From a phage: a stretch of 52,133 nt of DNA. This document shows, one piece after another, positions 1 to 19,814 of the stretch (position 1 is its first letter; each line of letters opens with the position of its first letter). The stretch is taken from sequence record OZ470597.1. One strand, 5' to 3'. The notes beneath the pieces were generated by a model. The model was not told the DNA's origin. It worked only from the letters and a program-made list of their open reading frames with translations, and did no database searches. A program made the translations under genes and the position numbers.

Positions 1-1
1 T

Positions 2-523: not shown

Positions 524-2091
524 TGCTGATTTGGGAAGACTTAACAGCGGCGCAAAAACGCGCCATTAAGGAAATGAGCGAATATTCATTCGAAAAGATG
601 ATCCGCATTTGGTTCCAACTTCTCCAGGGACAAAGGTTCTTAGGAAACTGGCATTTCAGTTACCTATGCAGCGAAGTTGAAAAAATCATCAAAGGCGAGT
701 CACAAAACGTAATTTTCAACATAACGCCAGGCAGCGGTAAAACAGAGATATTCTCGATCCATATGTCACCTTATGCGTCATTGAAAAGTAAGAAGGTGCG
801 AAATCTTAATCTTTCGTTTAGTGATGGCCTTGTCCAGCAGAATAGCAACCGAATTAAGGAGATTATCGGTTCTCCAGAATGGCAGGAGCTATGGCCTGGA
901 AAACTGGCAAAGGCGAGCGCAAAGGATCTGATCGTAACCGATGGCGGCAAGGTTAAATTGCAAGTTAACTCGCGATCTATAGGTGGTCAGGTTACTGGTC
1001 TGCGTGGCGGCTACATGGACGATGGATTTACTGGTATGCTGGTTCTTGATGATCCAGACAAACCGGATGACATGCTTTCTAAGGTAAAGCGCGAAGCCGG
1101 ACACATGCGCCTAAAGAACACGGTGCGATCGCGTCGAATGAAGGACACAACGCCCATCGTAATGGTCCAGCAACGGCTACACGTCAATGATTCAACATGG
1201 TTCATGACAAACGGAGGTATGGGCGGCATCCAGTTTAAGGTTGTTAGCATTCCGGCGCTCGTTACTAAGGAATATCGCGAAACGCTTCCTGATTGGTTAA
1301 GGCATGAGTTTGATCGCGATGTTTTGTCCAGCAAGCCAGTAATGATTGATGGAGTTGCTCATTATTCATTCTGGCCTGCTAAGGAAAGCGCGGAGGAATT
1401 ACTTGCACTTCGCAATGCTGATCCGTACACGTTCGCTAGTCAGTACCAGCAACAGCCTGTTGCGCTTGGCGGTAACGTGTTTAAAACAGAGTGGTTTCAG
1501 TATTACGGCAGCAGCGAGAAATGCACGCTACCAAAACCGGATCGCTTTGAATATACATTTATCACGGTTGATACCGCGCAGAAAACAGGTGAGCTTAACG
1601 ACTACTCCGTGATCTGTTATTGGGGGATGTATAAAGATCGCGTTTACTTCATTGATGGTGTTCGCGGAAAATGGGAAGCACCAGACCTTGAGACTAATTT
1701 TGTTGCGTTCGTTAATCAGTGCTGGAAGCGCAATAAAGAATGCGGAACGTTGAGAAGGATTCATGTTGAAGATAAGTCATCTGGTACTGGCTTGATTCAG
1801 AGCGCAGCGAAAAAAATCATGATCAAGATCAATCCCGTTCAGCGAGATAAAGATAAGGTTACGCGAGCAATGGACGCAGCACCAGTAATGCGCGCCGGAC
1901 GCGTGGCACTTCCAGAATCTCATCCTATGCTGGCTGAGATACTCGCTGAAGTTGCGGCGTTTACATTCGATGATAGCCATCCTCATGATGATATTGTTGA
2001 TAACATCATTGATGCGGTTAACATTGAAATGAACATGGCAGATGATCCGGTTGGAAGAATGAAAAAATTGGCAGGTTTGCGGAACAAATAG
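523..2091 (+). CDS. terminase large subunit
   Basis: 522 aa; P-loop-like TPGSGKTE, Walker B-like MLVLDDPD, C-terminal nuclease-type acidic motifs (ITVDTAQ, HVEDKSSGTG); followed by terminator. Confidence 0.8.
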   Translation: MLIWEDLTAAQKRAIKEMSEYSFEKMIRIWFQLLQGQRFLGNWHFSYLCSEVEKIIKGESQNVIFNITPGSGKTEIFSIHMSPYASLKSKKVRNLNLSFSDGLVQQNSNRIKEIIGSPEWQELWPGKLAKASAKDLIVTDGGKVKLQVNSRSIGGQVTGLRGGYMDDGFTGMLVLDDPDKPDDMLSKVKREAGHMRLKNTVRSRRMKDTTPIVMVQQRLHVNDSTWFMTNGGMGGIQFKVVSIPALVTKEYRETLPDWLRHEFDRDVLSSKPVMIDGVAHYSFWPAKESAEELLALRNADPYTFASQYQQQPVALGGNVFKTEWFQYYGSSEKCTLPKPDRFEYTFITVDTAQKTGELNDYSVICYWGMYKDRVYFIDGVRGKWEAPDLETNFVAFVNQCWKRNKECGTLRRIHVEDKSSGTGLIQSAAKKIMIKINPVQRDKDKVTRAMDAAPVMRAGRVALPESHPMLAEILAEVAAFTFDDSHPHDDIVDNIIDAVNIEMNMADDPVGRMKKLAGLRNK

Positions 2092-2118
2092 ACGAATCGA
2101 CAAACCAATATATAATCA

Positions 2119-2146
2119 AAGGCTGGTAAATCCAGCCTTTTTTATT
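2119..2146 (+). terminator. intrinsic terminator after large terminase gene
   Basis: hairpin AGGCTGG...CCAGCCT followed by TTTTTT, then RBS GGAGG. Confidence 0.6.
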
Positions 2147-2158
2147 GGAGGAAAGATA

Positions 2159-3439
2159 ATGAGTAAATCACGAATCGTTAAGGCTGATGGCTATAACGAG
2201 ATCTTTAAAGGCGAGAATTGCAAATCGCGAGTAGAGCAACCATTCTACATGCAATCAATGCCATACAAGACACTTGCTGACTTTTACGAAAAAGACGGCT
2301 TGGCAAAAAGGATTATTGACGTAGTACCAGAGGAAATGGTTTCCCCTGGCTTTACTGTTGACGGCGTGGCAGACGAGGCAGCATTCCGTTCTTTGTGGGA
2401 TGAGAAGCGATTGAATGCAAAAATCATTGATGCGCTTTGCTGGTCGCGTTTGTTTGGCGGATCTGCAATCATTGCTCTTGTTCAGGATGGGCGAGCGCTC
2501 AAATCACCTGTAAAGCATGGAGCTATTCTGGAAGATGTGCGCGTTTACGATCGCTATCAGATTCGCGTTGAAGCGCGCGAAACTAATCCCCGCAAAGTTC
2601 GCTATGGTGAGCCAGTGCTTTACACTGTAACACCAGGCGGAGATTTGCCGGAATACCAGGTACACTACACGCGCGTTTGCATTATCGACGGTGAGCGGAT
2701 ACCTAACGCAAAGCGACGCAGCAATGATGGATGGGGTGAGTCAGTTCTTAACAAGCGACTTGTTGAGGCTATTGTTGATTATAACTATTGTGAAACATTA
2801 GCCACGCAATTATTGCGCAGGAAACAACAGGCGGTATGGAAGGCTAAAGGACTCGCTGACTTGTGCGATGATGAAGAAGGTGTTAGCGCGGCACGTCTGA
2901 GGCTTGCGCAGGTTGACGATGAGGGCGGCGTAGGCAAGGCCATTGGTATTGATGCTGAGGATGAGGAATATGATGTTCTTAACTCTGACATTAGCGGCGT
3001 TGATTCTTTTCTGGAAAAGAAAATGGATCGCATCGTTTCCCTTTCAGGTATTCATGAAATCATCCTGAAAAATAAAAACGTTGGCGGCGTTAGCGCAAGC
3101 CAAAACACGGCGCTTGAAACATTCTATAAACTTATTGAGCGAAAACGCGTTGAGGATTACAAGCCAATCCTTGAATTTCTATTGCCGTTCATCATTAGTG
3201 AGCAGGAGTGGAGCATTGAGTTTTCACCTTTGAGCGTACCTAGCGATAAAGATCAGGCTGAAATTCTGAATAAGAATATCGACTCAATCAGCAAGGCTAT
3301 TGATGGTCAGTTCCTTGATGTTGAAGAAGCGCGAGACACGTTGCGAGCAATCGCCCCAAGCGTTAAACTAAAGGACACTAATAAAATCAAGCTGCCGGAG
3401 CCAGTGGAGCCGGAGCCAGGCACACAGGGGAATGAGTAA
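2159..3439 (+). CDS. portal protein
   Basis: 426 aa ORF directly after terminase with GGAGG RBS; position and size typical of portal. Confidence 0.65.
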   Translation: MSKSRIVKADGYNEIFKGENCKSRVEQPFYMQSMPYKTLADFYEKDGLAKRIIDVVPEEMVSPGFTVDGVADEAAFRSLWDEKRLNAKIIDALCWSRLFGGSAIIALVQDGRALKSPVKHGAILEDVRVYDRYQIRVEARETNPRKVRYGEPVLYTVTPGGDLPEYQVHYTRVCIIDGERIPNAKRRSNDGWGESVLNKRLVEAIVDYNYCETLATQLLRRKQQAVWKAKGLADLCDDEEGVSAARLRLAQVDDEGGVGKAIGIDAEDEEYDVLNSDISGVDSFLEKKMDRIVSLSGIHEIILKNKNVGGVSASQNTALETFYKLIERKRVEDYKPILEFLLPFIISEQEWSIEFSPLSVPSDKDQAEILNKNIDSISKAIDGQFLDVEEARDTLRAIAPSVKLKDTNKIKLPEPVEPEPGTQGNE

Positions 3440-4203
3440 TGAAAGTGAAGGGCGTCGTTAAACAATGGCGCTTTCCTGAAGCAAGCGAGCGGCAACTTAG
3501 CCGCTCAATTCAGGAGGCAATTAGAGATCTTGTAATTCTCATGCGCAAGCGAACAAAAGCGATGAAGTTTGACGCAACAGATAATGAGATCAACAGCGCA
3601 GAAGATGAGATTAACAGCCTGGCAACTGACCTTATAGCTGGCATTGTTTCCACCCTTCCTGCAATCGCGTTAACCATCTATAAATTCAATGCGAAGCAGT
3701 TCATAAATGTTGCCAAGTCAACTGGAGGAAAGGATAACACGGCGGTAATTGTTTTGATCGCGGTTGGAGCTAACGCTAGCGAGGAATGGTATCAGACGCT
3801 TTACGGGCAATGGCACGGACTCACAGAATCATCGCTAAGGAAGTTGTTCACAAATATTGTGTCTGACTGGTCAACAAAAATTCGCAATGCAAACTTTCGC
3901 GGAAGCAATGATAAACAGGTTAATGATCTTGCAGAAAAGAGATTTGCTGTTTATAGCTCATGGGGCAAAACAAGATCAGAAAACATTATCGGCGCGTGGA
4001 ATAGTCGCCTGATGCGCCAGCGCCTTTATGATGCTAAGGTGACTCATTATTTCTGGCATGGAATGTTAGATGATAGAGAGCGCTTGCAGCATGTGTTATG
4101 GGAAGGTAAAAGAATAGCGCTTGATGCAATTCATGATTTCCCTGGTGAGCCGTGGGGTTGCCGTTGCTGGGCGATTCCAGATTGGAATAATAAAGGAGAG
4201 TAA
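3439..4203 (+). CDS. head morphogenesis protein (Mu F / SPP1 gp7-like minor capsid protein)
   Basis: 254 aa, start overlaps portal stop; position after portal and conserved C-terminal region typical of MuF-like proteins. Confidence 0.55.
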   Translation: MKVKGVVKQWRFPEASERQLSRSIQEAIRDLVILMRKRTKAMKFDATDNEINSAEDEINSLATDLIAGIVSTLPAIALTIYKFNAKQFINVAKSTGGKDNTAVIVLIAVGANASEEWYQTLYGQWHGLTESSLRKLFTNIVSDWSTKIRNANFRGSNDKQVNDLAEKRFAVYSSWGKTRSENIIGAWNSRLMRQRLYDAKVTHYFWHGMLDDRERLQHVLWEGKRIALDAIHDFPGEPWGCRCWAIPDWNNKGE

Positions 4204-4206
4204 TTA

Positions 4207-5319
4207 ATGAAGGCAAAACAAAGATTTGATAGCGTCCAGGTTAAGGCGCATTTTGATGATAATGGATTTTTAGTGGATCGCCCAATTGTGGCGCGAATTG
4301 GTTTGCAGGAGTACCGCACACCGTATGGAATCAGACGAGAGTTCCGACCAGCGTCAGAGGTGTTTAAGGCTGATTCGCTTGCTACGTTCGCAGGCAAGCC
4401 GATCACTATCGGTCACGTCACAGTGACGCCAGATAATGCGGATCAGGTTGTTGTTGGTTCATGCGCTGGCGCTGGTGTTCCTAATGGGATTGGCGTTGAA
4501 GTTCCGTTAAGCATTTACTCAAAGCGAGCAATTGAGAGCGCAAAAAAGAAAGACACGGCGGAAATTTCAGTTGGTTACACATCGGTTGATATTGACAAGC
4601 CAGGCTGGGGTAATAATAAAACTGGTGATTACTTATTTGATGAAGACCTTAAAGAAGACTGGAAGCCTGATTCTCCTGATTGGGTCAAATTTGACGCCAT
4701 TCAGACGAATATCCGTGTTAATCACATTGCGCTTGTCTTTCGTGGTCGTGCTGGCATTGCCAAATTAAATCTTGATAGTGAACAAGATTTTCCGTATAGT
4801 GACGAGGTTCTAAATGACAAAGGAGATGAGGAAATGACAGTAAAAATTAAACTTGATGGCGCGGTAGAATTTGATGTTCCAAAGGCCGTTGCTGATCATA
4901 TTGAGGCGTTAAAGGCAGATGCAAAAGCTGCAACCGAAAAAGCTGATGGCCTTGAGGCCGAGCGCGACGCCCTGAAAACTAAAGTCGATGGCATTCCGGC
5001 GCAGATTGCAGAAGCTGTTAAGAAGGCAAAGACTGACGCAGAAGAACATGCCAAGCTGGTTGCAGATGCAACTGAAATTGGCATCAAGTGTGACGGCTTG
5101 GACGCTAAAGCGATCAAGGTTGCTTACGTCAAAGAAGTCACTGGCGCTGATATTTCAGAAAAAGCCGATGCATATATTGAAACAGCTTTTGACCTTGCGA
5201 AGCAGTCTGATAAAATGGCGGCGCAGCGTAAATCTGTTAAGGGCGATTCTTTCGAATCTGGCAAGAGTGAAAAAACCGACTCCCTTGATCCTACTGCGCG
5301 TTTGAAAAAACTTAAATAA
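4207..5319 (+). CDS. capsid scaffolding protein (DUF2213-like)
   Basis: 370 aa between MuF-like and capsid genes; C-terminal half Ala/Lys/Glu-rich coiled-coil (KADAKAATEKADGLEAERDALKTKVDG); AAGGAG RBS. Confidence 0.5.
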   Translation: MKAKQRFDSVQVKAHFDDNGFLVDRPIVARIGLQEYRTPYGIRREFRPASEVFKADSLATFAGKPITIGHVTVTPDNADQVVVGSCAGAGVPNGIGVEVPLSIYSKRAIESAKKKDTAEISVGYTSVDIDKPGWGNNKTGDYLFDEDLKEDWKPDSPDWVKFDAIQTNIRVNHIALVFRGRAGIAKLNLDSEQDFPYSDEVLNDKGDEEMTVKIKLDGAVEFDVPKAVADHIEALKADAKAATEKADGLEAERDALKTKVDGIPAQIAEAVKKAKTDAEEHAKLVADATEIGIKCDGLDAKAIKVAYVKEVTGADISEKADAYIETAFDLAKQSDKMAAQRKSVKGDSFESGKSEKTDSLDPTARLKKLK

Positions 5320-5331
5320 GGAGAAATAAAC

Positions 5332-5844
5332 ATGGCTACAATTGGAGCAAGCTACTTTGCTGTAATGTCTCGTGCGTTACCTGGTCAAGTTTCTGACACT
5401 TCAGCTTATAATATTGATGGCGCTTGTGTTCTTGAGAATGCGGCAGGCAATCAGAATCAGTCTGTTTTTGTTGGTGTGGCGGTCCAGCATGGCGGCGTTG
5501 ACGCTATGGGCAATAAGCTAATTAAGCCGATGGCGGCAAGCGGCAAGGCTTACGGCGTTGCAATTCGATCTCACTTTCAGACAACTTCGTCTGACGGTCG
5601 AATGATTTATGAATCTGGCGGCGGAATCAACGTAATGACTGAAGGGCGTGTTTGGATGTTGGCTAAAGACGCTTCCGCGCCAGCTTTCGGCACTGCAATC
5701 AAACTGTCTGATGATGGTCAGGTCGATACCACGTCTGGCACTATCGAAACAAACTGGATCGCGACTGGTGATTTCACCAAGTTTCAAGACTTGAAGCTGG
5801 TAGAGGTTCAGGTGCAAAAAGTTCCGGCAGTTTCAGCAGGTTAA
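5332..5844 (+). CDS. putative head decoration/auxiliary capsid protein (DUF2190-like), paralog 1
   Basis: 170 aa, strong RBS, followed by strong terminator; shares GVAV...G..VW.L...P..G pattern with the next ORF. Confidence 0.35.
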   Translation: MATIGASYFAVMSRALPGQVSDTSAYNIDGACVLENAAGNQNQSVFVGVAVQHGGVDAMGNKLIKPMAASGKAYGVAIRSHFQTTSSDGRMIYESGGGINVMTEGRVWMLAKDASAPAFGTAIKLSDDGQVDTTSGTIETNWIATGDFTKFQDLKLVEVQVQKVPAVSAG

Positions 5845-5851
5845 TAAATAT

Positions 5852-5875
5852 GGCGCTCACTGAGCGCCTTTTTTA
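5852..5875 (+). terminator. intrinsic terminator
   Basis: GGCGCTCA-C-TGAGCGCC hairpin followed by TTTTTT. Confidence 0.7.
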
Positions 5876-5889
5876 TATTTGGAGTTCTC

Positions 5890-6324
5890 ATGAGTGATTA
5901 TTCAGTCATTGTTGGCGCTGAGTCGCCAGGGTGCATGGTCGATTCTTCAATAATGGTGATTAACGGATCTTTCGTGTGCGGAGATGAATTTATTGCGCCA
6001 GGTAAGATTGTGCGACTATCACATATAACAAATGGATACAAAATAGCAAGTGTTAATGGGGATCTCGTTATTGGCGTGGCAGTAAGGCCGCCGGACTCGT
6101 GCATATATGAAGAGGGCGATCCAGTTAATGTGGTTAGTCGAGGTAATGTTTGGTGCTTAACTTCTGAGAGCGAAGCGCCAGAATATGGAGATAAAGTATT
6201 TGTAACGCAAGATGGAGATGTGGCATACAGTGAAGGCGACTTGCTGATTGGTTGGATCTTTACTGGCGAACATGTAAAGGTTGATCATGATTCATATATT
6301 GTCGGGGTAAGCATTAGCGCATAA
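5890..6324 (+). CDS. putative head decoration/auxiliary capsid protein (DUF2190-like), paralog 2
   Basis: 144 aa; paralogous to 5332..5844 (IGVAVRP...SRGNVWCL...APEYGDKV). Confidence 0.35.
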   Translation: MSDYSVIVGAESPGCMVDSSIMVINGSFVCGDEFIAPGKIVRLSHITNGYKIASVNGDLVIGVAVRPPDSCIYEEGDPVNVVSRGNVWCLTSESEAPEYGDKVFVTQDGDVAYSEGDLLIGWIFTGEHVKVDHDSYIVGVSISA

Positions 6325-6336
6325 CACAAAATTATG

Positions 6337-6364
6337 TTGCACGTTTAACAAAAAATGCTATCAT
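6337..6364 (+). promoter_or_regulatory. sigma70-like promoter upstream of major capsid gene (TTGCAC-16-TATCAT), overlapping a reversed copy of the conserved element
   Basis: -35 at 6337-6342, -10 at 6359-6364; conserved element gtttaacaaaaaatgctat at 6343-6361. Confidence 0.4.
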
Positions 6365-6407
6365 TGTGGCGTTACATACTAACAGCCTTTATATATGGAG
6401 GAAGAAA

Positions 6408-7382
6408 ATGGAAAAAGAAAAATTTGATCAGCTAGATGCGGATATTGTTTCTAGCTATCTGGCTACTCGCGGCGTTAAGGGTGATGCTTCTGATATGGGT
6501 ATCTGGACGGCGCAAGAGCTTCACAAGATCCGCTCAACTGCTTACGAGAAAGAATATCCGGCAGGTTCAGCGCTTCGTGTATTCCCTGTAACTAATGAGC
6601 TTTCTGATACTGATAAGACTTTTGAATATCAGATGTTTGACAAGGTTGGTTACGCAAAAATTATCGCTGATTACACCGACGATCTGCCGACCGTTGACGC
6701 GCTGATGTCCAGCGAATTTGGTAAAGTGTTCCGCTTGGGTAACGCGTTCTTGATCTCCATTGACGAAATCAAGGCTGGTCAGCGCACTGGTAAGAGCCTT
6801 TCCACTCGCAAGGCAAACGCAGCGCAAAACGCTCATGATCAGGAAGTTAACCGCCTGGTGTTTAAGGGTTCAAAGCCGCATAAGATTCTTTCGGTGTTTG
6901 AACATCCTAACCTGACAAAGATCGTGTCAACTGGCTGGTTAAGTGCTGATGAAAACACTAAGTTCCCGCAGGCAGCATCTGATGAACTGGAAAAGGCTAT
7001 TGAAACCATTCAGACCATCACCAATGGTCAGCACCGCGCAACCAATATCCTGATTCCGCCGTCTATGCGCAAGGTTCTTTCCGTTCGAATGGAAAACACC
7101 ACTGAAAGTTATCTGGAATACTTCCAGAAACAAAACAGCGGAATCACCATCGATTCAATCGCAGAGCTTGAGGATATTGATGGCGCTGGAACGAAAGGTT
7201 GCCTGGTATATGAGAAAGACCCAATGAACATGTCGATCGAAATTCCAGAAGCATTTAACATGCTTCCGGCGCAACCAAAAGATCTGCATTTCAAAGTTCC
7301 GTGCACTTCAAAATGTACTGGCCTGACTATTTACCGTCCATTTACGCTGGTGCTTATTACTGGCTTGAAAAAATCCGGTTAA
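6408..7382 (+). CDS. major capsid protein
   Basis: 324 aa from ATG 6408 with GGAGG RBS (the listed ORF start 6366 is a GTG upstream); own promoter TTGCAC-16-TATCAT; strong terminator after stop; position after scaffold/decoration genes. Confidence 0.65.
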   Translation: MEKEKFDQLDADIVSSYLATRGVKGDASDMGIWTAQELHKIRSTAYEKEYPAGSALRVFPVTNELSDTDKTFEYQMFDKVGYAKIIADYTDDLPTVDALMSSEFGKVFRLGNAFLISIDEIKAGQRTGKSLSTRKANAAQNAHDQEVNRLVFKGSKPHKILSVFEHPNLTKIVSTGWLSADENTKFPQAASDELEKAIETIQTITNGQHRATNILIPPSMRKVLSVRMENTTESYLEYFQKQNSGITIDSIAELEDIDGAGTKGCLVYEKDPMNMSIEIPEAFNMLPAQPKDLHFKVPCTSKCTGLTIYRPFTLVLITGLKKSG

Positions 7383-7395
7383 TCGTATAACATTT

Positions 7396-7426
7396 GGGAA
7401 TCCTTAATTGGATTCCCTTTTTTATT
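7396..7426 (+). terminator. intrinsic terminator after major capsid gene
   Basis: GGGAATCC...GGATTCCC hairpin followed by TTTTTT. Confidence 0.7.
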
Positions 7427-7438
7427 GGAGGTTATAAA

Positions 7439-7711
7439 ATGGCTAAAGAAAAAACTGTAACGTTAAAGGTTTCCGGTGTGTGCCTTATCATTGTTGATGG
7501 CGAGCATTATCATCCAGGCAAAGAGTTTGACGTAGAAGAATCAAAATTGAAAACAAGCGCGTTTGAATATCTAATTGCAAAAGGCGATCTGGAGGTTAAA
7601 GACAACTCCGCATTGAACGAAGAAATCAAACAGAGCGCAGCAAGCAAGCGTAAAAAAGACCCGCGAGAGGGCAAGAGCAAAGCCGAACTTGAAGACGGCG
7701 GCATCTATTAA
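7439..7711 (+). CDS. hypothetical protein (head-tail region)
   Basis: ATG 7439 with GGAGG RBS immediately after terminator 7396-7426; 90 aa. Confidence 0.45.
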
Positions 7712-7758
7712 TAAAGAGGGCGCTTATAGCGCCCTTTGTCATATCTGGAGGAAACACA

Positions 7759-8175
7759 ATGGTTGATGAATTTTTCACTGACACAGAAATCACGCAGCAA
7801 ATCGTGAAATTAGCTCCACCGATGAAGCAGATTGATCCAGATTTAATGGTGGCATGGATTGAGCTTGCAAAGGAATTTGTTTGCAAGAAGCGGTTTAAAG
7901 AATCATATCCTAAAGCTGTTGCTCTTTATACGTTGCACCTTATGACGCTTGACGGAGCGATGAAACAGGAAGGTGAAAGCGTAGAGAGTTACTCACGGCG
8001 CGTGGCGTCATTTTCCCTGACTGGTGAATTTAGCCAGGCATTTGATCGTGTGTCCGGCGATTCAAGCGGAAAAGAGATCAGGCAAACTCCGTGGGGTAAA
8101 ATGTACGAAACGCTAAATCGCAAGAAAGGTGGTGGATTTGGCCTTGTTACTGGATTTCGGAGGCGCTGCAAATGA
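7759..8175 (+). CDS. putative head-tail connector protein
   Basis: 138 aa, GGAGG RBS, position between capsid and tail genes. Confidence 0.4.
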
Positions 8176-8543
8176 ACTATAACGAGATCGCAAGAATGGC
8201 AACCGAAGGAATTAACTTCTTTAGTGATGGCAACGGTGAGTTTAAGTGCATAACGCAGCGAGGAAGCGTTGAAATAATCGGAGGCGAAGAAGTAGAAAAG
8301 CCAGAGATTAGTGTAATGATTAAGGGTTTAATTCGATCCCCAAAAGTTCGAGAGGTTGACGGCGAGACAATACGAGTAACCGATAAGTTGGGAGTTTTTA
8401 ACAATAAAGTTGAAATTAAGAACGGGTATCATATTGATGTTGATGGTGAATTATATGTTGTAGTTGAAGCAAGACCAATCAGACAAACCAATGTCACTGT
8501 TGCTTATCGGCCTATTTTGAGAAGGATTTCTGTGCATGGCTAA
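8172..8543 (+). CDS. putative head closure/head-tail joining protein
   Basis: 123 aa, start overlaps upstream stop (ATGA); position. Confidence 0.4.
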
Positions 8544-8979
8544 AAACTACACGATAAGGGAATTTCACGGCAACATTGATGCGTGGATAAACGCCGTTGA
8601 TAATGGCCTGAAAGATTGCGTGGAGTTGTTCGCCGAAAAAGTGCATACAGATCTTGTTAAGCGTTCTCCGGTAGATACTGGTCGTTACCGTGGAAACTGG
8701 CAGGTAACAGCAAATAAGCCGCCATTGTATGCGCTTAACCAGTACGATAAGCACGGCGACAAAACGATCGCGGAAGGCAAGCGAGCCATATACGCAATAT
8801 TACGAGGCGGCGGCGCAGTAAGGGCCATTTATTTTTCTAACATGCTTATTTATGCTAACGCGCTTGAATACGGTCATTCAAAACAAGCGCCAGCGGGTGT
8901 GCTTGGTATTGTTGCCGTGAAGTTGCGTTCATATATGGCTGAAGCAATAAAAGAGTCGAGGGCTAAAAATGCACTATGA
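8536..8979 (+). CDS. neck/tail completion protein (HK97 gp10-like)
   Basis: 147 aa with VDTGRYRGNW motif typical of HK97 gp10-family head-tail proteins. Confidence 0.55.
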   Translation: MAKNYTIREFHGNIDAWINAVDNGLKDCVELFAEKVHTDLVKRSPVDTGRYRGNWQVTANKPPLYALNQYDKHGDKTIAEGKRAIYAILRGGGAVRAIYFSNMLIYANALEYGHSKQAPAGVLGIVAVKLRSYMAEAIKESRAKNAL

Positions 8980-9367
8980 ATTAATGCTATCGGCGCGTAA
9001 GGCGCTGGCGACTGAATACGAGAGCAGATTCACGATCGCTTATGAAAACGTAGAGTTTACGCCACCTGGTGACGGTTCGCCGTGGTTGAAGTTTGACTAT
9101 GCCGAAGTTGACACAGAATACTTGTCATTGGATCGAAAATGCGTTTCATATATCGGAATGATTCAGGTTGGCATTGTTTTTCCACCAGGTTACGGAACTG
9201 ACAGGCCGCGCGTTCTAGCTAAAGAGATTGCGCAATTCTTTTACGATGGTAAAATGCTGGAGCATGGTTATATATATGAGGGTGCAAGAGTTCACAAGCC
9301 GCTCAAGAGTGAAAGCGGTTGGATTCTCCCAATAAGGTTTTATGTTCGAATTGAAACAAAGGAGTAA
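8969..9367 (+). CDS. putative tail terminator protein (lambda U-like by size and position)
   Basis: 132 aa immediately upstream of the major tail protein gene. Confidence 0.45.
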   Translation: MHYELMLSARKALATEYESRFTIAYENVEFTPPGDGSPWLKFDYAEVDTEYLSLDRKCVSYIGMIQVGIVFPPGYGTDRPRVLAKEIAQFFYDGKMLEHGYIYEGARVHKPLKSESGWILPIRFYVRIETKE

Positions 9368-9372
9368 AAATT

Positions 9373-10035
9373 ATGCATTTACCAAATGGATCGCAAATTT
9401 TCGTTGAGAGCAATCGCGGAAGCGCTATTGAGGCAACGGCAGTATCAAACGCTAAAGATCCTGTATTCACCGTTGCATCTGGCGGTACTGCGTACAAGAA
9501 AGGTGATTATGTTATCATCACTGCGTCCTCCTGGGGCAAGCTGATTAATCGTGTTATGCGTGTAAAGACTAACGGTGAAGATACAAGCGTAACTCTTGAA
9601 GGTGTAGATACTACTGATCAGAACGTGTTCCCGACTGGCGGCACTGCATCTTTTGCCAAGATTGATGCATGGACTGAGATCCCTTGCGTTCAGGATTTGT
9701 CGCAGGACGGCGGAGAACAGCAATATTACACTTATCAGTGTTTGGCTGACGACCAGGAGCAGCAGTTACCTACCTATAAGAGCGCGGTTTCTCTTACCTA
9801 CACTTTTGCGCACGAATACGATAACGCGATCTATCCGTTACTTCGTGCAGCAGACGAATCCGGTGAAGTAACGGCGCTTCGCATGTATGTACCAAAAGCA
9901 AAAGAGATGCGTTGCTGGGCTGGTGTCCTTTCGTTTAACGAGATCCCACAAACGACCGTTAACGAAATGGAAACTGTTTCCCTGTCTGTATCCCTGAAAG
10001 GTCGATTCACCTTCCTACCTTCTCAAGTAGCATAA
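9373..10035 (+). CDS. major tail (tube) protein
   Basis: 220 aa, AAAGGAG RBS, followed by strong terminator and then the chaperone/tape-measure genes. Confidence 0.6.
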   Translation: MHLPNGSQIFVESNRGSAIEATAVSNAKDPVFTVASGGTAYKKGDYVIITASSWGKLINRVMRVKTNGEDTSVTLEGVDTTDQNVFPTGGTASFAKIDAWTEIPCVQDLSQDGGEQQYYTYQCLADDQEQQLPTYKSAVSLTYTFAHEYDNAIYPLLRAADESGEVTALRMYVPKAKEMRCWAGVLSFNEIPQTTVNEMETVSLSVSLKGRFTFLPSQVA

Positions 10036-10040
10036 TCACA

Positions 10041-10063
10041 AGGGGCGTTGCGCCCCTTTTTTT
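10041..10063 (+). terminator. intrinsic terminator after major tail gene
   Basis: AGGGGCG...CGCCCCT hairpin followed by TTTTTTT. Confidence 0.7.
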
Positions 10064-10101
10064 GTTACTGTACAATCATGCTACACGATTCATAATCAAT
10101 T

Positions 10102-10121
10102 CTTTTAACAAAAAGTGCTAT
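10102..10121 (+). promoter_or_regulatory. conserved element copy (reverse orientation) upstream of tail chaperone gene
   Basis: cttttaacaaaaagtgctat between terminator 10041-10063 and RBS of gene 10135. Confidence 0.35.
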
Positions 10122-10134
10122 CAAGGAGAAAGAA

Positions 10135-10452
10135 ATGTCAAAAATGAAATTGACGATTGGGCCGCTTCCTGACTTTAAATTACCAGTGAAATTTGCAATG
10201 CCTAACGGAGAAGATCAAACAATTATCTTCACAGTTCGCCACCGCAAAACAAGTGAGATTCACGAGCGCTACACGTCAGATACTCCAATGAGCGATGTTG
10301 AAATGATTACCTTCCTTGCTTCCGGTTGGAATCTTGATGATGAATTTAACGAAGAAAATATTAAACAGCTTCTTGATTACTACCCAGCAACAGCAATCGG
10401 ATTAACTAGCGCATACATGAAAGCGCTTGCGGGGCAGCGAGTAAAAAACTAA
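10135..10452 (+). CDS. tail assembly chaperone (lambda G-like)
   Basis: 105 aa between major tail and tape measure genes; ends just after slippery heptamer A_AAA_AAC. Confidence 0.65.
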   Translation: MSKMKLTIGPLPDFKLPVKFAMPNGEDQTIIFTVRHRKTSEIHERYTSDTPMSDVEMITFLASGWNLDDEFNEENIKQLLDYYPATAIGLTSAYMKALAGQRVKN

Positions 10453-10763
10453 AAAGGGCGGTTTACCTGTTTTATCAGAAACCGCCGACAGATGCAGAGC
10501 TTGAGGCCGTTGGGCTTACAAGGGCAGACTATGAAGGAGAAGATCCGCCAGAGGTTATATTTGATGAAAGCATGATGCAATCATGGGATATATTTTGCGC
10601 AATGCAAACGCAATGGAGATGTTCTGGCGGTGGCGCTTACGGATTTGATTATAATGTCTTGCCTATGCTTTTTGAGATTTACAAGGTTGAGGATCGCGAG
10701 ATGGCGCTAAACGACTTGCGAATCATGGAGCAAAAAGCACTTGAAATGATGCATTCAAAATAA
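10135..10763 (+). CDS. tail assembly chaperone GT-like fusion made by programmed -1 frameshift (shift near 10443-10449)
   Basis: -1 frame is open from the slippery site to stop at 10761-10763; slippery AAAAAAC followed 7 nt later by an 8-bp stem (10457-10464/10479-10486). Confidence 0.5.
10443..10486 (+). promoter_or_regulatory. programmed -1 ribosomal frameshift site (slippery A_AAA_AAC plus downstream stem-loop)
   Basis: heptamer 10443-10449 in X_XXY_YYZ register of the G-like ORF; 8-bp stem GGCGGTTT/AAACCGCC at 10457-10464/10479-10486. Confidence 0.5.
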
Positions 10764-10785
10764 GCGCCTACGGGCGCTTTTTTAT
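10763..10785 (+). terminator. intrinsic terminator upstream of tape measure gene
   Basis: AGCGCC...GGCGCT hairpin followed by TTTTTT. Confidence 0.6.
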
Positions 10786-10802
10786 TACCTGGAGGATTAA
10801 TA

Positions 10803-13475
10803 ATGTCAGAACAATACGCAGGCTTGACGCTTGGGGTTGACGTTTCTCAACTCAACAATGCTGTAAAGTCTTTGCAGCAATTCAAGAAGGCAAACGACGA
10901 CGCAAAGGGAAGCATTGAGAGTTTTGTTGATTCAGAGGTTGTTGCAAGACAAAGAGCCAAACAACTGGCTGAGGAATTGGCAAAGCAGAAGCAAGAATTT
11001 AAAGCAATTCAGTCGGCAATAGATCCGACAGCAAGCAAAATGGATAAGTTGCGCCAGGCTGCAACACAGCTTGATGCGCTTTGGAAAAAAGGAATTGTGC
11101 CGGATGATACATTCTTTGAGTTAGGATCAATTCTTGAGACGCAGCAAAATAAACTGATCGCAACTAAAAAGGCGCTAACTGAAGAAGGCCGCGCGGCTCT
11201 TGAGGAAGCAAAAAATAAGGCAAGAGCAGAGGCTGAGGCAAGAAAGTTTATTGCGGCATTGCAGGCGCAAGCTGACGCAGCAGAAAAAACAAAGTCAGAG
11301 CTTGTCGAAATGAGAGCCGCACAACTTGGAGTTAGTGCAGAGGCCGCGCCATTTATTGCAAAAATGAAGGAGCAGGAAAAACAAGCCTCAAAACTTGGCG
11401 TTTCTATGGGGCAGTACAAGCAAGCAATGGCGCAATTGCCAATGCAGATCACTGACGTTGTTACTTCTCTTGCTTCAGGTATGCCAGTATGGATGATCGC
11501 AATCCAGCAGGGCGGGCAAATCAAGGACTCATTCGGCGGTGTTGCTAATACGTTTAAAGCGCTAATGACATTTGTCACGCCTTTAAGTGTAGGAATGACG
11601 GCGCTGACTGGTGCTCTTGGTTATGCTGCATATAATGCATACAAAGCAAATGCACAACTGAAGGAGATCACAAAAACCGTTCAGGAGGCAACTGGTCTTT
11701 CTGGTGATTTTGCGGAGCGGATTGCAACTGGAATCCAGGCGCTATCTGACAAGACAGGTGAGAGCGCCGATAATCTGGCAAAGGCATACATAAGCACTAA
11801 GGATGGAGCAACCGAGGCCATACAAAAACTCGTCGATGTTGGGTTTACCTATGACGAAGCAAAGGTAAAGGTAAACGAATACAAGAATGCGTCAAGTTTT
11901 GTAAGTCTCAACAATGAGATTGCTGATCACAAAAACAAGGTTCTTGAGCTTGGAGATTCGTGGTATGAAGTCTTAAAAGCGAAGAATGATTATGCTTCAC
12001 CGTCCGGCGGGCTGTTGGGGAAAGAGCTTGGTTATGTAAATCCTATGTTGCAATTTGCGAAGAACACCTATGAGGATATAGGGAAGATCGTAAAAGATGC
12101 GAATAAGGATATGGCGGAACGAGCAGCACGCATCGACAGAGAAAATCTTTCCTTAAACAGAGTTCGAGCGGCGCAAGAGGCTTTAAACAAAGCCATAGAG
12201 GATCAGAAAAATGTAGCAAGGACAGCAGACGAAGAGTTGAAAAAACGAGCAGCCGAGAACGTTGAGTTCAGGCGAAAAGAGCTTGAAGAGGCGAAGAAGG
12301 CACAGCAGCAAAAGGAGAAAGTTGGCGGAGTTGTAAAAGCACCAACAGAGCAGCTTGATAAGGAGCTATATGTTCTCAAGGCGCAACTTGAAACGCTGAA
12401 AGAGCACCGAACTGTAAATGATGTTATTTCACGCCAGAGGCAATCTTTGTGGAGTGTTGAAAAGCAGATCCAGATCCTGGAGGAAGCGCAAAGCAAGCGT
12501 AAGCTGACAAGAGCGGAACAAGCGTTACTTAACGAGCAAAAAGCTGTTCTTGCTATGGCAAAAGAAAAGGCAGAGATAGGCGATCAGATTGTTTTGCAAC
12601 AGAGAAAGAATAAGCAATACCAAGAAGGGCTTAAATTCATTCAGCAAACATCAGATGCTATTGACGCTATGAACTTGCGACAGTCTGGAGCTACAGATCT
12701 GCAAATCCAGCGAGAGCTTGAGTTGAAGAAGTTGCGAACTGATTATGTTGCTGGCGGCGGTAGTATCGACGATGAAATTTATCAGCAGATGGAAGCAAAG
12801 CTAAAGGAGTATTACGCAACTGAGGATCAACTTAGAAATAACTGGATTGCAGGAGCAAAAAACGCATGGGAGGTTTACGGACAAGATGCAATGGATATGT
12901 ACGGCAACGTGCAAGATATTGCAAGCGAGGCGCTCAACGGTCTAACCAACCAAATGGCTACATTCCTTGCAACAGGCAAGGCAAACTTTAAGAGCTTCGC
13001 AACGTCAATCATCCAAATGATTATCCAGATGATCACGAAGATGGTTATCTTTAATGCCATATCTGGTGCGATTGGAGGTGACACTTGGACGATTGGAAGC
13101 CTTCTTAAAAATGTTGGATTTGCAACTGGTGGATACACTGGCGACGGCGGGAAGTATGAGCCAGCAGGTGTTGTTCATAAAGGCGAGTTTGTCATGACGA
13201 AGGAGGCCACGAAGCGGATCGGAGTTGGAAACCTTTACAAAATGATGCGCGGTTATGCAAATGGCGGCGTTGTTGGCGGCACTTCATACACTGGCGGCGG
13301 CGTTTCATCAGGAGCAACAAACCTTAATATTGGTGGGATTAGCGTTGATATTAACAACGGAAACGATCCGAAGGGGTTAGAGACTGGCGTAAAAATGATT
13401 TTCACTGATATGATTAAGCGTTCCTGTACGCAGGGTGGGGAAGTTTACGAATTTGTTATGTCTAAGCGGGGGTGA
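10803..13475 (+). CDS. tail tape measure protein
   Basis: 890 aa, coiled-coil-rich N-terminal half, hydrophobic segment, Gly-rich C-terminus; position after G/GT. Confidence 0.85.
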
Positions 13476-13828
13476 TAGTGAAACTTGAGCAATTCAAATG
13501 GTGCACGCAAACGCAAGGAGGCGGCGGCACTATGACCACATCAAATAACGACAGGGAAATCTCATTTGGTAATGGTTACACGCAGGTTGCGTCAGGAGGG
13601 TTTAACACTGTACGCAGGGAGTTTTCCATTGTCTATGTGGGTAATGATTACCGAGATGTTGTTGACTTCCTGAATGGTCACAGGTTGAAGCCGTTTTTAT
13701 GGTTTATGCCTGACGGTCAACCTGGTCTATTCAGGGTAAAATCTGGTAGCGTTGGGTTAACTCCAATATCAGCAACCGTTCAGGAAGTGAAAGCAACATT
13801 TACTGAGCAATTTACATCAATGCAATAA
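13472..13828 (+). CDS. minor tail protein (lambda M-like)
   Basis: FKW...[14 protein letters not shown] matches lambda M FRW...FGDGYSQRAPAGLN; GTG start overlapping tape-measure stop (alternative ATG 13532). Confidence 0.65.
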
Positions 13829-13832
13829 TTCA

Positions 13833-13857
13833 AGCCGCCTTTGTGCGGCTTTTTTAT
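13833..13857 (+). terminator. intrinsic terminator
   Basis: AGCCGC...GCGGCT hairpin followed by TTTTTT. Confidence 0.6.
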
Positions 13858-13889
13858 TGATGATACAATGCACGAAAGGAGGTGCAATT

Positions 13890-14651
13890 ATGGCTAATGA
13901 AACAACAGGTCGAGCGGATCTTGAAAACTGTCTGCAAAGCCTTTACCCTGGCGAGATTATCACGCTAATTGAGATTGACGGTACAAAGTTTGGCGCAAAC
14001 ATTTACCGCATACACAATGAGAACATCTCATACACTGCGGAAGAATTATTGCAGGCGCGAGAAACTGGAGTTCTCCCGCCGAAAGATATTACATTCCGTG
14101 GTGAGGTTTACGGCGCGCGACCGTTCGGAATATCTGGAATCAACTTCACAAGCAACGGAAAGGCTGATAAGCCACAATTGATACTGTCAAACCTTGATAG
14201 CCAGGTGAGCGCGATGATTCGCAACTTTAACGGCATGATGCAAGCTAAGGTTACAATCTGGATCACGCCAGCAGAATTAATGGGTAAAGATGGCAGCATT
14301 AAAGATGGCGCTTCAAGAAAGCTGGTTTATTACATTGAGCGCCCAAGCCATTACAATAGAATGATGGCAAAGTTTGATCTGACATCGCCTTATGATATGG
14401 ATGGAATAATGATTCCTCCGCGAATAACTCAAAGCGTTTGTTATTGGGCGCAGCGTGGATGGTATCGAAGCGGAAAAGGTTGCGGATACAATGGATCGCG
14501 AATGTTTGACAAAGACAACAATCCTGTAACCGATCCATCTCAAGACTTTTGCGCAGGAACTGTAACAGCGTGCAAACTTCGTTTTGGTGCAGATCAGCAG
14601 CTTGATTTTGGCGGTGCGCCAGTAGCAAGCCTGTTAAGGAGAAATCAGTGA
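13890..14651 (+). CDS. minor tail protein (lambda L-like)
   Basis: ATG 13890 with AAAGGAGG RBS; C-terminal Cys cluster (CYWAQ...GKGCGYNG...FCAGTVTAC) like lambda L. Confidence 0.75.
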   Translation: MANETTGRADLENCLQSLYPGEIITLIEIDGTKFGANIYRIHNENISYTAEELLQARETGVLPPKDITFRGEVYGARPFGISGINFTSNGKADKPQLILSNLDSQVSAMIRNFNGMMQAKVTIWITPAELMGKDGSIKDGASRKLVYYIERPSHYNRMMAKFDLTSPYDMDGIMIPPRITQSVCYWAQRGWYRSGKGCGYNGSRMFDKDNNPVTDPSQDFCAGTVTACKLRFGADQQLDFGGAPVASLLRRNQ

Positions 14652-15382
14652 TGATTAGTGCAAAAATAAAACTTGAAATAATGCAGCACGTAAAAGATGA
14701 ATACCCGCGCGAGGCGTGCGGTGTTATCACTCAAAAATCACGCGTGCAAAAATACCGCCGCATAACCAACGTACATGATGATCCTGAAAATCATTTTGAG
14801 ATGGACGCAATTGAATACGTTGAAGCGTGCGAAAGTGGCGAGCTTATTGCTGTTGTGCATAGCCACACTGGAGACGGGGCAAGTACAATTCCAAGCGCCC
14901 ATGATACATGCATGTGTGATGAAATGGGTGTTTCATGGGTTATTGTGTCATGGCCAGAAGGTGATATGAGGATCATTGAGCCTGAATCTCGTCCTCTGAT
15001 TGGTCGCCCGTGGTCGCTTGGGGCGTATGATTGCTGGGGGCTTATTATGGCATGGCACAAGCAACATGGAGTTATCCTGAATGATTTCAGGAAACCATAT
15101 GAATGGTGGAAGCCTGAGCACGGTGAAAATCTTTATCAAGAAAATTATCTGAAAGAGGGTTTTATTGAAACAGGAGAGCCGCCAAAACCTGGTGATATGG
15201 TTATCTTTCAGCTTTCCGCGCCAGTGTGGAATCATGCAGGCATTTATCTTGGCAACAATCAGTTGCTTCATCATGCCTTTGGTAAATTGTCGAGGGTTGA
15301 TTTGTATTCTGGATGGTATCAGGAACATGCAAAAATGGTTTGTAGACATAAGGATCTGAAATATGACTTTGAAGGTAATTAA
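14651..15382 (+). CDS. tail tip assembly protein (lambda K-like; JAB/MPN + NlpC/P60 domains)
   Basis: AVVHSHTGDGASTIPSAHD (JAMM-like) and YDCWGL...H (NlpC/P60 Cys/His) motifs, collinear with lambda K. Confidence 0.85.
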   Translation: MISAKIKLEIMQHVKDEYPREACGVITQKSRVQKYRRITNVHDDPENHFEMDAIEYVEACESGELIAVVHSHTGDGASTIPSAHDTCMCDEMGVSWVIVSWPEGDMRIIEPESRPLIGRPWSLGAYDCWGLIMAWHKQHGVILNDFRKPYEWWKPEHGENLYQENYLKEGFIETGEPPKPGDMVIFQLSAPVWNHAGIYLGNNQLLHHAFGKLSRVDLYSGWYQEHAKMVCRHKDLKYDFEGN

Positions 15383-15959
15383 ATTATCTGGATCTTTAGG
15401 GCGAAGATTTGGTGTATTTCATAAGATGGCTGTTGACTCATACCCTGAAGCAATCCGTGCGCTATCCTCGCAGGTGGAAGGATTCAAGGACTACATGCAA
15501 AGCGAAGTAGGATCACGAATGCGTTATGCTGTATTTGTTGACGGTAATAATGTAGGGCAGCACGATGAAAAAGCGTGGCAATGCGCAAAGGAAGTGCGGA
15601 TTATTCCAATCCCAACAGGTTCAAAGTCTGGTGGGTTGTTTCAGGTTGTTCTTGGGGCGGTTATTATGGCGACTGCATTTTTCACTGGCGGCGCTTCACT
15701 TGCGTTGATGGGTGCTTTTGCATCGTCTGCTTTCATGATGGGTGGCGCTATGGTGCTGGGTGGTGTAATGCAGATGATTTCACCACAGCAAGGCGGGTCG
15801 CGGTTATCATCCCAATCAGCAGAGAATAAGCCGTCTTACGCTTTTGGCGGTGCAGTTAACACAACGGCGGCAGGATACCCAATACCATTACCATACGGTC
15901 AAAGGACCGTCGGCGGAGCTATCTGGTCGGCTGGGAGTTATGCAGAAGATAAGGCTTAA
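15363..15959 (+). CDS. tail tip assembly protein (lambda I-like)
   Basis: SKSGGLFQVVLGAVIMATAFFTGGASLA matches lambda I AKSGGVFQIVLGAAAIAGSFFTAGATLA. Confidence 0.85.
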   Translation: MTLKVIKLSGSLGRRFGVFHKMAVDSYPEAIRALSSQVEGFKDYMQSEVGSRMRYAVFVDGNNVGQHDEKAWQCAKEVRIIPIPTGSKSGGLFQVVLGAVIMATAFFTGGASLALMGAFASSAFMMGGAMVLGGVMQMISPQQGGSRLSSQSAENKPSYAFGGAVNTTAAGYPIPLPYGQRTVGGAIWSAGSYAEDKA

Positions 15960-15967
15960 TATAAAAG

Positions 15968-15994
15968 AGTCGCGCGTTGCGCGGCTTTTTTTTT
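15968..15994 (+). terminator. intrinsic terminator upstream of J-like gene
   Basis: GC-rich hairpin followed by nine Ts; TATAAT at 16000-16005 just downstream. Confidence 0.6.
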
Positions 15995-16039
15995 GCCCGT
16001 ATAATTCAACAAATCAAATAGCACAAAAGGTGAAAAAGC

Positions 16040-19465: not shown

Positions 19466-19508
19466 AATCAAAGCGGGGCGTTTGCCCCGCATTTATGGAG
19501 GTTTAATA

Positions 19509-19814
19509 ATGGCTGAATATGGGATCTCAACTTGGGATGCAAACGGAAAATATAATAACTACGGTATTAAGCCGGTTTCCGTTGTTGGTGTTATCAGTCT
19601 TTCCGCTGGTCAGACAAGCGGATCGTGGAGTTTTAACATTCCAAGTGGTTTTAAGGTTGGGTATGTTGTTTCACTTGATGAAGGCGCTAGAGGAGTTGGA
19701 AGGGAAATAGTGGCATCTGGAAATACAATAAGAATTAGTCCTACATCGTCAGTTGGTCCAAATAGGTATTCTTCTTCAAAGTGCGAGTTAGTTGTTTTTC
19801 TTGAGAGGGTTTAA
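19509..19814 (+). CDS. hypothetical protein downstream of J (MAEYG family, short paralog)
   Basis: ATG 19509 with GGAGG RBS; N-terminus MAEYGISTWDANGK is shared with the next gene. Confidence 0.45.
   Translation: MAEYGISTWDANGKYNNYGIKPVSVVGVISLSAGQTSGSWSFNIPSGFKVGYVVSLDEGARGVGREIVASGNTIRISPTSSVGPNRYSSSKCELVVFLERV

Follow-up and report, generated by a model that had tools for sequence, protein, structure and literature searches.

The late region of a T1-like coliphage genome contains a series of stable hairpins with U-tracts that are placed shortly before the ribosome binding site (RBS) of the next gene. The window, i.e., the whole 52,133 nt stretch of DNA analyzed (sequence record OZ470597.1), is the genome of such a phage (Drexlerviridae, Tempevirinae, Hanrivervirus). 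The favored reading, with a probability of about 0.55, is that canonical intrinsic terminators bound the late transcription units, and that the genes downstream would be fed either by leak-through or by re-initiation at promoters that overlap the terminators. Nine junctions are numbered here in map order: TerL/portal (J1), major cement/minor cement (J2), major capsid/DUF7444 (J3), DUF7444/adaptor (J4), tail tube/chaperone G (J5), G/T chaperone frame/tape measure (J6), distal tail protein M-like/hub L-like (J7), I-like/J-like (J8) and J/next gene (J9). A preliminary description had listed J1, J3, J6 and J7. These four are real but the list was incomplete; there are at least nine co-directional terminators in the late region, which would divide it into short transcription units.

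Anatomy of the junctions

The terminator/RBS junctions previously observed are confirmed. Each of the four sites has a G+C-rich stem of 7–9 base pairs (positions 2118–2140, 7396–7417, 10762–10779 and 13832–13851) and directly after it the U-tract TTTTTTAT, with at least 5 U in 8 nt; the sequence following each stem is TTTTTTATT. Hairpin and U-tract together span 2118–2146, 7396–7426, 10762–10786 and 13832–13858. The z-scores of the folding energies relative to shuffled sequences are -3.6 to -4.7, and none of 200 shuffles was equally stable at any site. All four are on the plus strand, 0–26 nt past the stop codons of TerL, the capsid gene, the T frame and the M-like gene, respectively. The hairpins would stop the host RNA polymerase at the 3' ends of the TerL, capsid, G/GT chaperone and M-like genes, and termination is presumed to be partial.

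The J1 terminator (2118–2146) consists of AAAGGCTGG-TAAAT-CCAGCCTTT followed by TTTTTTATT, with a delta G of -14.1 kcal/mol and a z-score of -4.7. The portal Shine-Dalgarno (SD) sequence GGAGG at 2147–2151 and the start codon at 2159 follow it (2147–2161). J3 (7396–7426, -14.6 kcal/mol) is GGGAATCC-TTAATT-GGATTCCC plus TTTTTTATT, with GGAGG at 7427–7431 and ATG at 7439. J6 (10762–10795, -13.2 kcal/mol) has the stem loop AAGCGCC-TACG-GGCGCTT over a TAA stop codon, then TTTTTTATT and GGAGG (10791–10795). J7 (13832–13858, -11.0 kcal/mol) is AAGCCGC-CTTTGT-GCGGCTT plus TTTTTTATT. Where the SD sequence is close, it begins 0 nt (2147 and 7427) or 4 nt (10791) from the end of the 9-nt U-rich stretch, i.e., the ribosome site begins where the terminator ends. 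Terminated RNAs would end just before the ribosome site because the SD sequence begins where the approximately 9-nt U-rich stretch ends. Intergenic regions are cut down to stop codon, hairpin, U-tract, SD sequence and start codon.

Some details of the preliminary description have to be modified. J1 and J3 do share an identical junction, the 16-mer CCTTTTTTATTGGAGG, which occurs exactly twice (2136–2151 and 7416–7431), but it ends 2 nt earlier than had been reported. The number of matches expected with up to two mismatches is 0.06. The stems of J1 (GGCTGG..) and J3 (GGGAATCC..) are unrelated and the identity ends at the stem. The arrangement of terminator, T-tract and RBS described for J6 and J7 is correct as to hairpin and U-tract at both sites, and as to the close RBS at 10791, but J7 is separated from its RBS. 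There are 18 nt between its U-tract and AGGAGG (13877–13882), and they contain an extended -10-like sequence, TGATACAAT, at 13861–13869, so placed between the U-tract and the hub start. The genes that follow are those of the portal (start 2159), tape measure (10803) and L-like hub (13890), as had been stated. The gene at 7439–7711, 3' of the capsid terminator, encodes a DUF7444 protein and not a recognised head-tail protein.

Further co-directional hairpins are present in the late region at 5852, 7715, 10040, 15963 and 19473, and others are found at 20459 and, upstream of terS, at 52061. With these included, folding energies range from -11 to -16.9 kcal/mol and z-scores from -3.1 to -5.7; all are co-directional and follow stop codons. 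J2 (5852–5880, -12.8 kcal/mol) is GGCGCTC-ACT-GAGCGCC with TTTTTTATATTT and has GGAG at 5881; the genes on both sides show Pfam Phage_cement matches. J4 (7715–7745, -16.6 kcal/mol) has GGAGG at 7747 and a degenerate U-tract, TTTGTCAT, with too few U residues; the U-tract is full in phages T1 and TLS. In J5 (10040–10076) the terminator is followed by the -10-like sequence TGTACAAT at 10069–10076, and in J8 (15963–16005, -16.9 kcal/mol) by TATAAT at 16000–16005. J9 (19440–19501) has its hairpin at 19473–19490 and GGAGG at 19497; its U-tract is also weak (ATTTATGG, ATTTAT). The sequence TTTTTTATT occurs 8 times in the window, compared with 2.6 expected, and 5 of the 8 copies come after a co-directional GC hairpin. 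The U-tract UUUUUUAU is common to five of the nine terminators, which have stems of similar stability, and two (7715 and 19473) have degenerate U-tracts. Judged from these features, terminator strengths look like two levels and not a gradient.

Conservation in related phages

The nine junctions were located by their flanking proteins in 169 loci, consisting of 9 GenBank genomes and 160 IMG/VR loci. The GenBank genomes span five lineages: Hanrivervirus, Tlsvirus, Tunavirinae, Braunvirinae plus Rogunavirinae, and Webervirus. A junction is termed terminator-like when a stable hairpin is present and at least 5 of the 8 nt after it are T, and percentages are per unique junction sequence. Each junction is terminator-like in 63–99% of the unique sequences versus 0.7% of 1707 length-matched coding windows of these loci that served as controls; the junction percentages are lower bounds, as the hairpin caller, which is based on minimum free energy, can fuse A-tract and U-tract into one long stem and then score a true terminator as a hairpin alone (e.g., loci L121 and L150 at J6). 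The value is 73% of 63 sequences at J1 and 99% of 74 at J3, where there are 35 distinct stems. Distinct stem sequences number 17–35 per junction. An alignment of the capsid-junction hairpins (MAFFT/RNAalifold) shows double compensatory changes at 6 of 7 pairs; this alignment is poor, with variable loop and stem lengths and a weak consensus energy, and per-sequence folding with the coding control was relied on instead. What is conserved in the junction hairpins is structure and position, and not sequence.

The composite TTTTTATTGGAG recurs at J1, J2, J3, J4 and J7 in different lineages, and this recurrence suggests that the identical 16-mer represents convergence, the two constraints being a U-tract and, directly after it, a ribosome site. 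It is extremely improbable that the junctions arose by chance, from base composition or from a dispersed repeat copied to several places. A 16-mer shared by two sites might be taken for a repeated element, but its identity stops at the stem, and stems vary between sites and phages while positions are conserved. The low frequencies in coding windows and of expected 16-mer matches and the lack of an Rfam family also argue against this origin, as does the convergence to which the recurring composite points. Duplication or a mobile repeat was rejected as a source, the identity being confined to the 16-mer and the stems being different.

There are two classes of junction. In the first, a -10 sequence comes after the terminator and the SD sequence is approximately 30–45 nt away (J5, J8 and most J7 sequences). 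The second, or tight, class has the SD sequence abutting the U-tract. Here the SD sequence starts about 8–13 nt past the last G:C pair, mostly 9 or 12 nt and never less than 7–8 nt, and TTTTTTATT is the commonest spacer between the two.

Extra genes (HNH endonucleases and small open reading frames (ORFs)) are inserted exactly at terminator junctions in phages Rtp (L008, positions 8429–8912 and 16270–16784), Rogue1 (L009, 12049–12625 and 19332–19654) and Kalemo (L004, 18046–18660). These inserts each carry their own repeat element and -10 box, and the original terminator/RBS composite stays downstream of the insert.

Promoter-like elements at the terminators

Three of the four sites first described, J1, J3 and J7, have a promoter-like element, recognized here by sequence motif only. 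Over the late region, motifs of this type are found at J1, the capsid gene, J3, J5, J7, J8 and J9, and the tight class often has one on the opposite (5') side of the hairpin.

At J1, a TATAAT -10-like box (2111–2116, + strand) is 1 nt 5' of the A-U-extended hairpin, and upstream of it is a degenerate direct-repeat-like element that overlaps the TerL stop codon. The box is the top promoter-like match of a generic scan over positions 1–20000. The hexamer is perfect in 53% of the unique flanks and matches at 5 or more of 6 positions in 93%, whereas other junctions have a perfect hexamer in 0–7%. It is found 0–4 nt from the G:C core of the hairpin, and the predicted +1 (the base 7 nt past the hexamer) falls inside the 5' arm in 26–27 of 29 distinct configurations.

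At J3, TTGAAA (7365–7370) and TAACAT (7388–7393) are separated by 17 nt (7365–7393, + strand; 9/12 in the generic scan), and the -10 sequence ends 2 nt before the hairpin. The element extends from the 3' end of the capsid gene into the intergenic spacer. The pattern TTGnnn-17-TAnnnT flush with the hairpin is present in 36 of 51 unique flanks (71%) versus 1.3% of shuffles. The capsid stop codon is found at four positions in the spacer, with TTG-to-stop distances of 14, 17, 18 or 23 nt offset by 9, 6, 5 or 0 nt of intergenic sequence, respectively. The 17-nt spacing is thus preserved through changes in both parts. J9 has a similar arrangement, TTGGTA-17-TGgTAAAAT (-10 at 19463–19468), which ends 4 nt before its hairpin. 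Of the 21 plus-strand promoter-like matches of the generic scan, 3 end 1–4 nt before a hairpin, with about 0.05 expected.

In relatives, a -10-like box comes after the terminator in 84% of J5 sequences (SD sequence approximately 43 nt away), 68% of J7 and 100% of J8. The remaining 32% of J7 terminators, e.g., those of Rtp and Rogue1, have the tight TTTTTTTATTGGAG form. No -10 sequence is found next to the hairpin in related flanks of J4 and J6 (0% at both; 0 of 37 at J6), where the upstream flanks are plain A-tracts, and in the window J6 shows a promoter-like element on neither side. The junctions at 10762, 5852 and 7715 are too short to hold a promoter, and they show no promoter-like element. 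Motif scans also did not detect an own promoter for the units starting at 5890, 7759 and 10803.

Two other interpretations of the -10 signals were rejected. An apparent signal between U-tract and RBS at J1 (43%) is an artefact of TATTAT within TTTTTTATTATGG. The upstream -10 sequences of J1 and J3 might also be the antisense U-tract of a bidirectional terminator; junctions of that type (J2, J6 and J7) show plain A-tracts and not TAnnAT.

The major capsid gene has a sigma-70-type promoter at 6337–6364 (+ strand), consisting of TTGCAC, 16 nt and TGcTATCAT. It is present in all lineages examined as TTGACG or TTGCAC, 16 nt, TGn and TATTAT or TATCAT. In T1, TLS, Kalemo and others, a hairpin follows within 1–4 nt and then a U-tract and SD sequence, so that the parts are arranged as at the terminators with a flush -10 sequence. 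The corresponding hairpin in the window (6368–6387) is eroded (-5.6 kcal/mol).

Re-initiation would take two forms. In the first, the -10 sequence is flush with the 5' side of the hairpin (2111–2116; 7388–7393 with the -35 at 7365–7370; 19463–19468). Were these promoters to fire, their transcripts would begin within the 5' arm, lack a complete hairpin and run into the next gene. For example, a start at A7400 would leave only AAUCC/GGAUU, with CCC between it and the U-tract. In the second form, the -10 sequence is between the U-tract and the ribosome site (13861–13869, 10069–10076 and 16000–16005).

A more specific proposal, to which we assign somewhat less than even odds, is that the RBS-abutting terminators of Drexlerviridae are composite 'promoter-in-terminator' cassettes, with the -10 sequence flush with the hairpin and the start in its 5' arm. 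The capsid junction would use a -35 sequence exactly 17 nt upstream and the portal junction a direct-repeat-like element in its place. Incoming transcripts would stop, and locally initiated, hairpin-free ones would enter the next gene. An intergenic region of about 60 nt would then serve as the end of one unit and the start of the next, RBS included, and protein ratios would be set by promoter strength and not by terminator leak. If this is correct, promoter/terminator overlap explains how a 20-kb structural region with nine terminators is expressed by host polymerase with no known antiterminator. Such elements would also be compact, naturally insulated expression cassettes for engineering in E. 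coli.

Read-through and structural protein stoichiometry

The preliminary description proposed that graded read-through sets the stoichiometry of the structural proteins. Copy numbers in the T1 virion are 415 for the capsid protein, 360 and 60 for the cement proteins, 12 each for portal and adaptor, approximately 204 (about 34 x 6) for the tube protein, 3 for the tape measure, 6 for the distal tail protein and 3 each for hub and J (PMC11945409). The proposal is supported only in part. It fits the terminators after the cement, capsid, tube and chaperone genes. Steps in the predicted direction are from cement protein at 360 copies to that at 60, from capsid protein (415) to low-copy connector proteins, and from chaperones to tape measure (3). 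A position after a high-copy gene, of the type of the T7 T-phi terminator, is found at 7396, 5852, 10040 and 10762, and not at 2118, which follows TerL, or 13832, which follows the M-like gene. The proposal fails before the portal gene, as the unit downstream of J1 (portal, scaffold/protease and the cement protein of 360 copies) needs more product than terminase, and also at 13832 and 15963, which divide proteins of equal copy number (6/3/3). The capsid gene, with the highest need, is downstream of two terminators.

Leak-through would be the sole route into the tape-measure gene (10762–10795) and across 5852 and 7715; because these have no promoter room or element, the genes that follow them appear reachable by read-through only. 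A terminator at such a junction would attenuate transcription after a gene whose product is required in greater quantity. Among the four sites first described, only the tape-measure one looks like a pure attenuator. At the others, re-initiation rather than graded leak may feed the downstream genes, because three of the four sites carry promoter-like elements that overlap the terminator.

A pure attenuation cascade, with one or few late promoters, a long operon and a fixed fraction of polymerases passing each terminator so as to set the protein ratios, is unlikely as an account of the whole region. It would explain why terminators follow the highest-copy genes (cement, capsid and tube; PMC11945409) and it provides the read-through needed at 10762, 5852 and 7715. 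Inefficient terminators that balance expression are documented in T7, and sequential read-through in phage LUZ7 (PMC9163698). However, expression would have to rise from terminase to portal, scaffold and cement, although a strong-looking terminator lies between them. The capsid gene, past two terminators, has its own conserved consensus promoter, and the tube gene with its approximately 204 copies is downstream of the capsid terminator. Conserved promoter geometry at J1, J3, J5, J7, J8 and J9 also counts against such a cascade, and one U-tract shared by five terminators leaves little room for grading.

The opposite extreme, that efficient terminators are full stops between units that each have their own promoter, with negligible read-through, is less likely still. 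This is the strict form of a description of the T1 late region as 'transcriptons', which are flanked by terminators and contain RpoD promoters (Roberts et al. 2004, as cited in PMC11447400). The description as cited there, the promoter-like elements at most junctions and the strong appearance of stems and U-tracts are in its favor. On the other side, the tape measure and M unit, the minor cement gene and the adaptor-to-tube unit are without a detectable promoter of their own, with 0% of flanking -10 sequences at J4 and J6. A re-annotation of TLS, in which only intergenic promoters were sought, detected no more than three of the sigma-70 type and was unable to confirm transcriptons (PMC11447400).

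Several points weigh against the combination of leak-through and re-initiation favored here. The percentages given above come from related, non-independent sequences and so overstate the number of independent events. A TTG-type -35 sequence is present in only 2 of 42 J1 flanks, and a 5-bp remnant hairpin next to the J1 U-tract could persist, depending on which base is the start. The -35-like TTG of J3 is part of the coding sequence, where selection on the protein may partly constrain it. An incoming polymerase has to pass over the promoter before terminating, and the promoter is thereby exposed to occlusion. The searchable literature contains no transcript 5' or 3' ends and no termination efficiencies for any T1-like phage. 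Finally, in Webervirus (L006, L007, L074 and L081) and in L065 and L067, the stable TerL/portal hairpin has no U-tract (e.g., GTGGGCCTGACGGCCCAC ACTTAAAC); this suggests that the hairpins may also serve a role other than termination, e.g., in RNA stability. The Webervirus hairpin is still directly preceded by CATAAT.

It is improbable that the hairpins in general are mainly RNA stability or processing elements, which would protect upstream 3' ends from exonucleases or shield the 5' ends of downstream segments after cleavage, with termination secondary. Hairpins without a full U-tract do persist, both at these TerL/portal junctions and at 7715 and 19473 in the window, and on read-through RNA a hairpin would be only 6–9 nt from the SD sequence. 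But most junction hairpins have 5–9 U directly after the stem, a feature specific to termination, and they are on the sense strand at the 63–99% found above versus 0.7% in coding controls. Protection of 3' ends is moreover an ordinary by-product of any intrinsic terminator.

Comparison with known systems

The four sites are known, family-conserved terminators of T1-like phages, and the read-through idea is likewise not new. The T1 record (NC_005833) lists a 'rho-independent transcriptional termination site' at every homologous junction, 10–40 nt before the next gene. All four sites and the five additional ones map to T1-annotated junctions (TerL/portal, cement/cement, capsid/gp46, gp46/adaptor, tube/G, T/tape measure, M/L, I/J and J/next) in the same orientation. 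The J1 homologue in T1 is annotated at 10545–10573 and the J7 homologue at 22793–22816; the J2 junction is also annotated. T1 has CCCTTTTTATTGGAGG at TerL/portal and TTTTTTTATTGGAG after the capsid gene. Its stem sequences differ from those of the window, and its record lists no promoters. The record of the Citrobacter phage Sazh (MH729819) has a terminator and then a ribosome_binding_site 0–4 nt later at five junctions (TerL/portal, cement/cement, capsid/next, next/adaptor and T/tape measure); this matches the arrangement noticed in the preliminary description, but the record makes no statement on function and lists no promoters. There are 21 intergenic terminators in TLS (PMC11447400) and 18–21 terminators per genome in other T1-like genome papers (PMC4070988). 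The only potentially new element, as suggested by the motifs, is a promoter pressed against the terminator hairpin. No earlier description of a promoter overlapping a terminator was found in a phrase search of the literature, which did not include the 2004 T1 genome paper. A practical use is in annotation: records of the genus without regulatory features, e.g., that of vojen, could receive nine terminators and the promoters.

In phage T7, the T-phi terminator is located directly after major capsid gene 10, and genes of lower copy number further downstream are supplied by partial read-through. The polymerase on which T-phi acts is that of the phage itself, and there is essentially one site, whereas the window has nine sites, several with overlapping promoters, which would act on host polymerase. 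Use of the host polymerase by T1-like phages is probable because no polymerase gene was found in TLS (PMC11447400). In the Pseudomonas phage LUZ7, ONT-cappable-seq showed that stepwise termination produces nested transcripts in the structural region, and more than 60% of LUZ7 terminators are leaky (PMC9163698). Read-through was measured in that case; LUZ7 is an unrelated phage with its own polymerases.

The late region of phage lambda has a homologous structural gene order, but intergenic hairpins are found only after E, J and lom, i.e., it shares the hairpin after the capsid gene E and after gene J. The lambda late genes mostly overlap or abut without terminators and are expressed by Q antitermination from one promoter. 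In contrast, the window has eight hairpin-bearing junctions between the TerL and J genes and a ninth after J. An antiterminator is not annotated in vojen, T1, TLS, Rtp or Rogue1, the small ORFs having been scanned only in part. One regulator was checked in the window, a Cro-like helix-turn-helix (HTH) protein at 29063–29536.

A 19-nt direct repeat near promoter-like sequences

The 19-nt sequence ATAGCACTTTTTGTTAAAA is the direct repeat reported for TLS (PMC11447400). It has 19–21 copies in the window, e.g., at 32068–32086 (+), 33088–33106 (+), 39349–39367 (-), 44618–44636 (+), 45082–45100 (+) and 48588–48606 (+). A -10 hexamer with at least 5 of 6 matches is found 17–20 nt, mostly 19 nt, downstream of 15 of 19 copies versus 1.7% of random positions. 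The hexamers are CATAAT, TATAAT or TATTAT, often with TGn. From this placement, the repeat looks like a fixed-position upstream promoter element at approximately -50 to -32. Its TTGTTA is not a canonical -35 sequence because it is 22 nt from the -10 sequence, and a bound activator or a factor of the sigma-appropriation type is a possibility.

In 6 of 19 copies, the spacer between repeat and -10 sequence is a strong GC hairpin (-10.8 to -13.9 kcal/mol) that ends directly at (C/T)ATAAT. These hairpins (33107–33126, 32088–32106, 39329–39348 (-), 44638–44656 and 48607–48625) have a different stem sequence at each location. Minus-strand copies of the repeat are present inside the plus-strand late region at 6344–6361 and 10103–10121, and also at 20770–20788. 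The inverted copy at 6344–6361 forms the spacer and TGn of the capsid-gene promoter. That at 10103–10121 immediately precedes the SD sequence in the leader of chaperone gene G (5' side); it is kept in T1 and Kalemo and is absent in TLS, Webervirus and Rogue1. A full copy is found over the TerL stop codon (aaaTAGCACGAATTGCTAAAC) in L015, L016, L020, L031–L038, L040, L056 and Kalemo (L004), 5–7 nt upstream of the TATAAT of the portal terminator; this copy is degenerate in the window (2086–2110). The three geometries of the repeat relative to the -10 sequence (upstream, overlapping, and inverted in the spacer) would suit an operator for both activation and repression.

Genome organization and other features

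The first 20 kb of the window are 96–97% identical over the full length to Shigella phage SFP17 and Escherichia phages vojen, aalborv and herni. The window end (AAAGGAGGGCGCAT) continues into its start (TATGGCT, in the small terminase gene), which indicates a complete, circularly permuted genome that opens at terS. Upstream of terS there is a unit on the plus strand consisting of a terminator (52061–52078), TATAAT (52101–52106) and AGGAGG (52122–52127), which serves the terS ATG at position 2. The order of terminator, -10 sequence and RBS is kept in nine of nine reference genomes.

The late genes at 2–20454 are all on the plus strand. They encode, in order, TerS, TerL, portal, a MuF-like head protein, protease/scaffold, two cement proteins, major capsid protein, the DUF7444 protein, adaptor, stopper, completion protein, tail terminator, tail tube, chaperones G/GT, tape measure, M-, L-, K-, I- and J-like tail-tip proteins and two membrane proteins. 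No Rfam families or tRNAs were found anywhere in the window.

Head and tail-tip modules are exchanged among the closest relatives. The capsid protein of L010/L096 (IMGVR_UViG_3300045988_032316) is 100% identical and the L-like hub only 83%, versus 96% and 100%, respectively, in L013/L090 (..._017938). A perfect 35-bp tandem duplication is present at 49454–49523 (2.0 copies, 97% match), inside what appears to be a small hydrophobic ORF that starts near 49427. It shifts the reading frame, because 35 is not a multiple of three.

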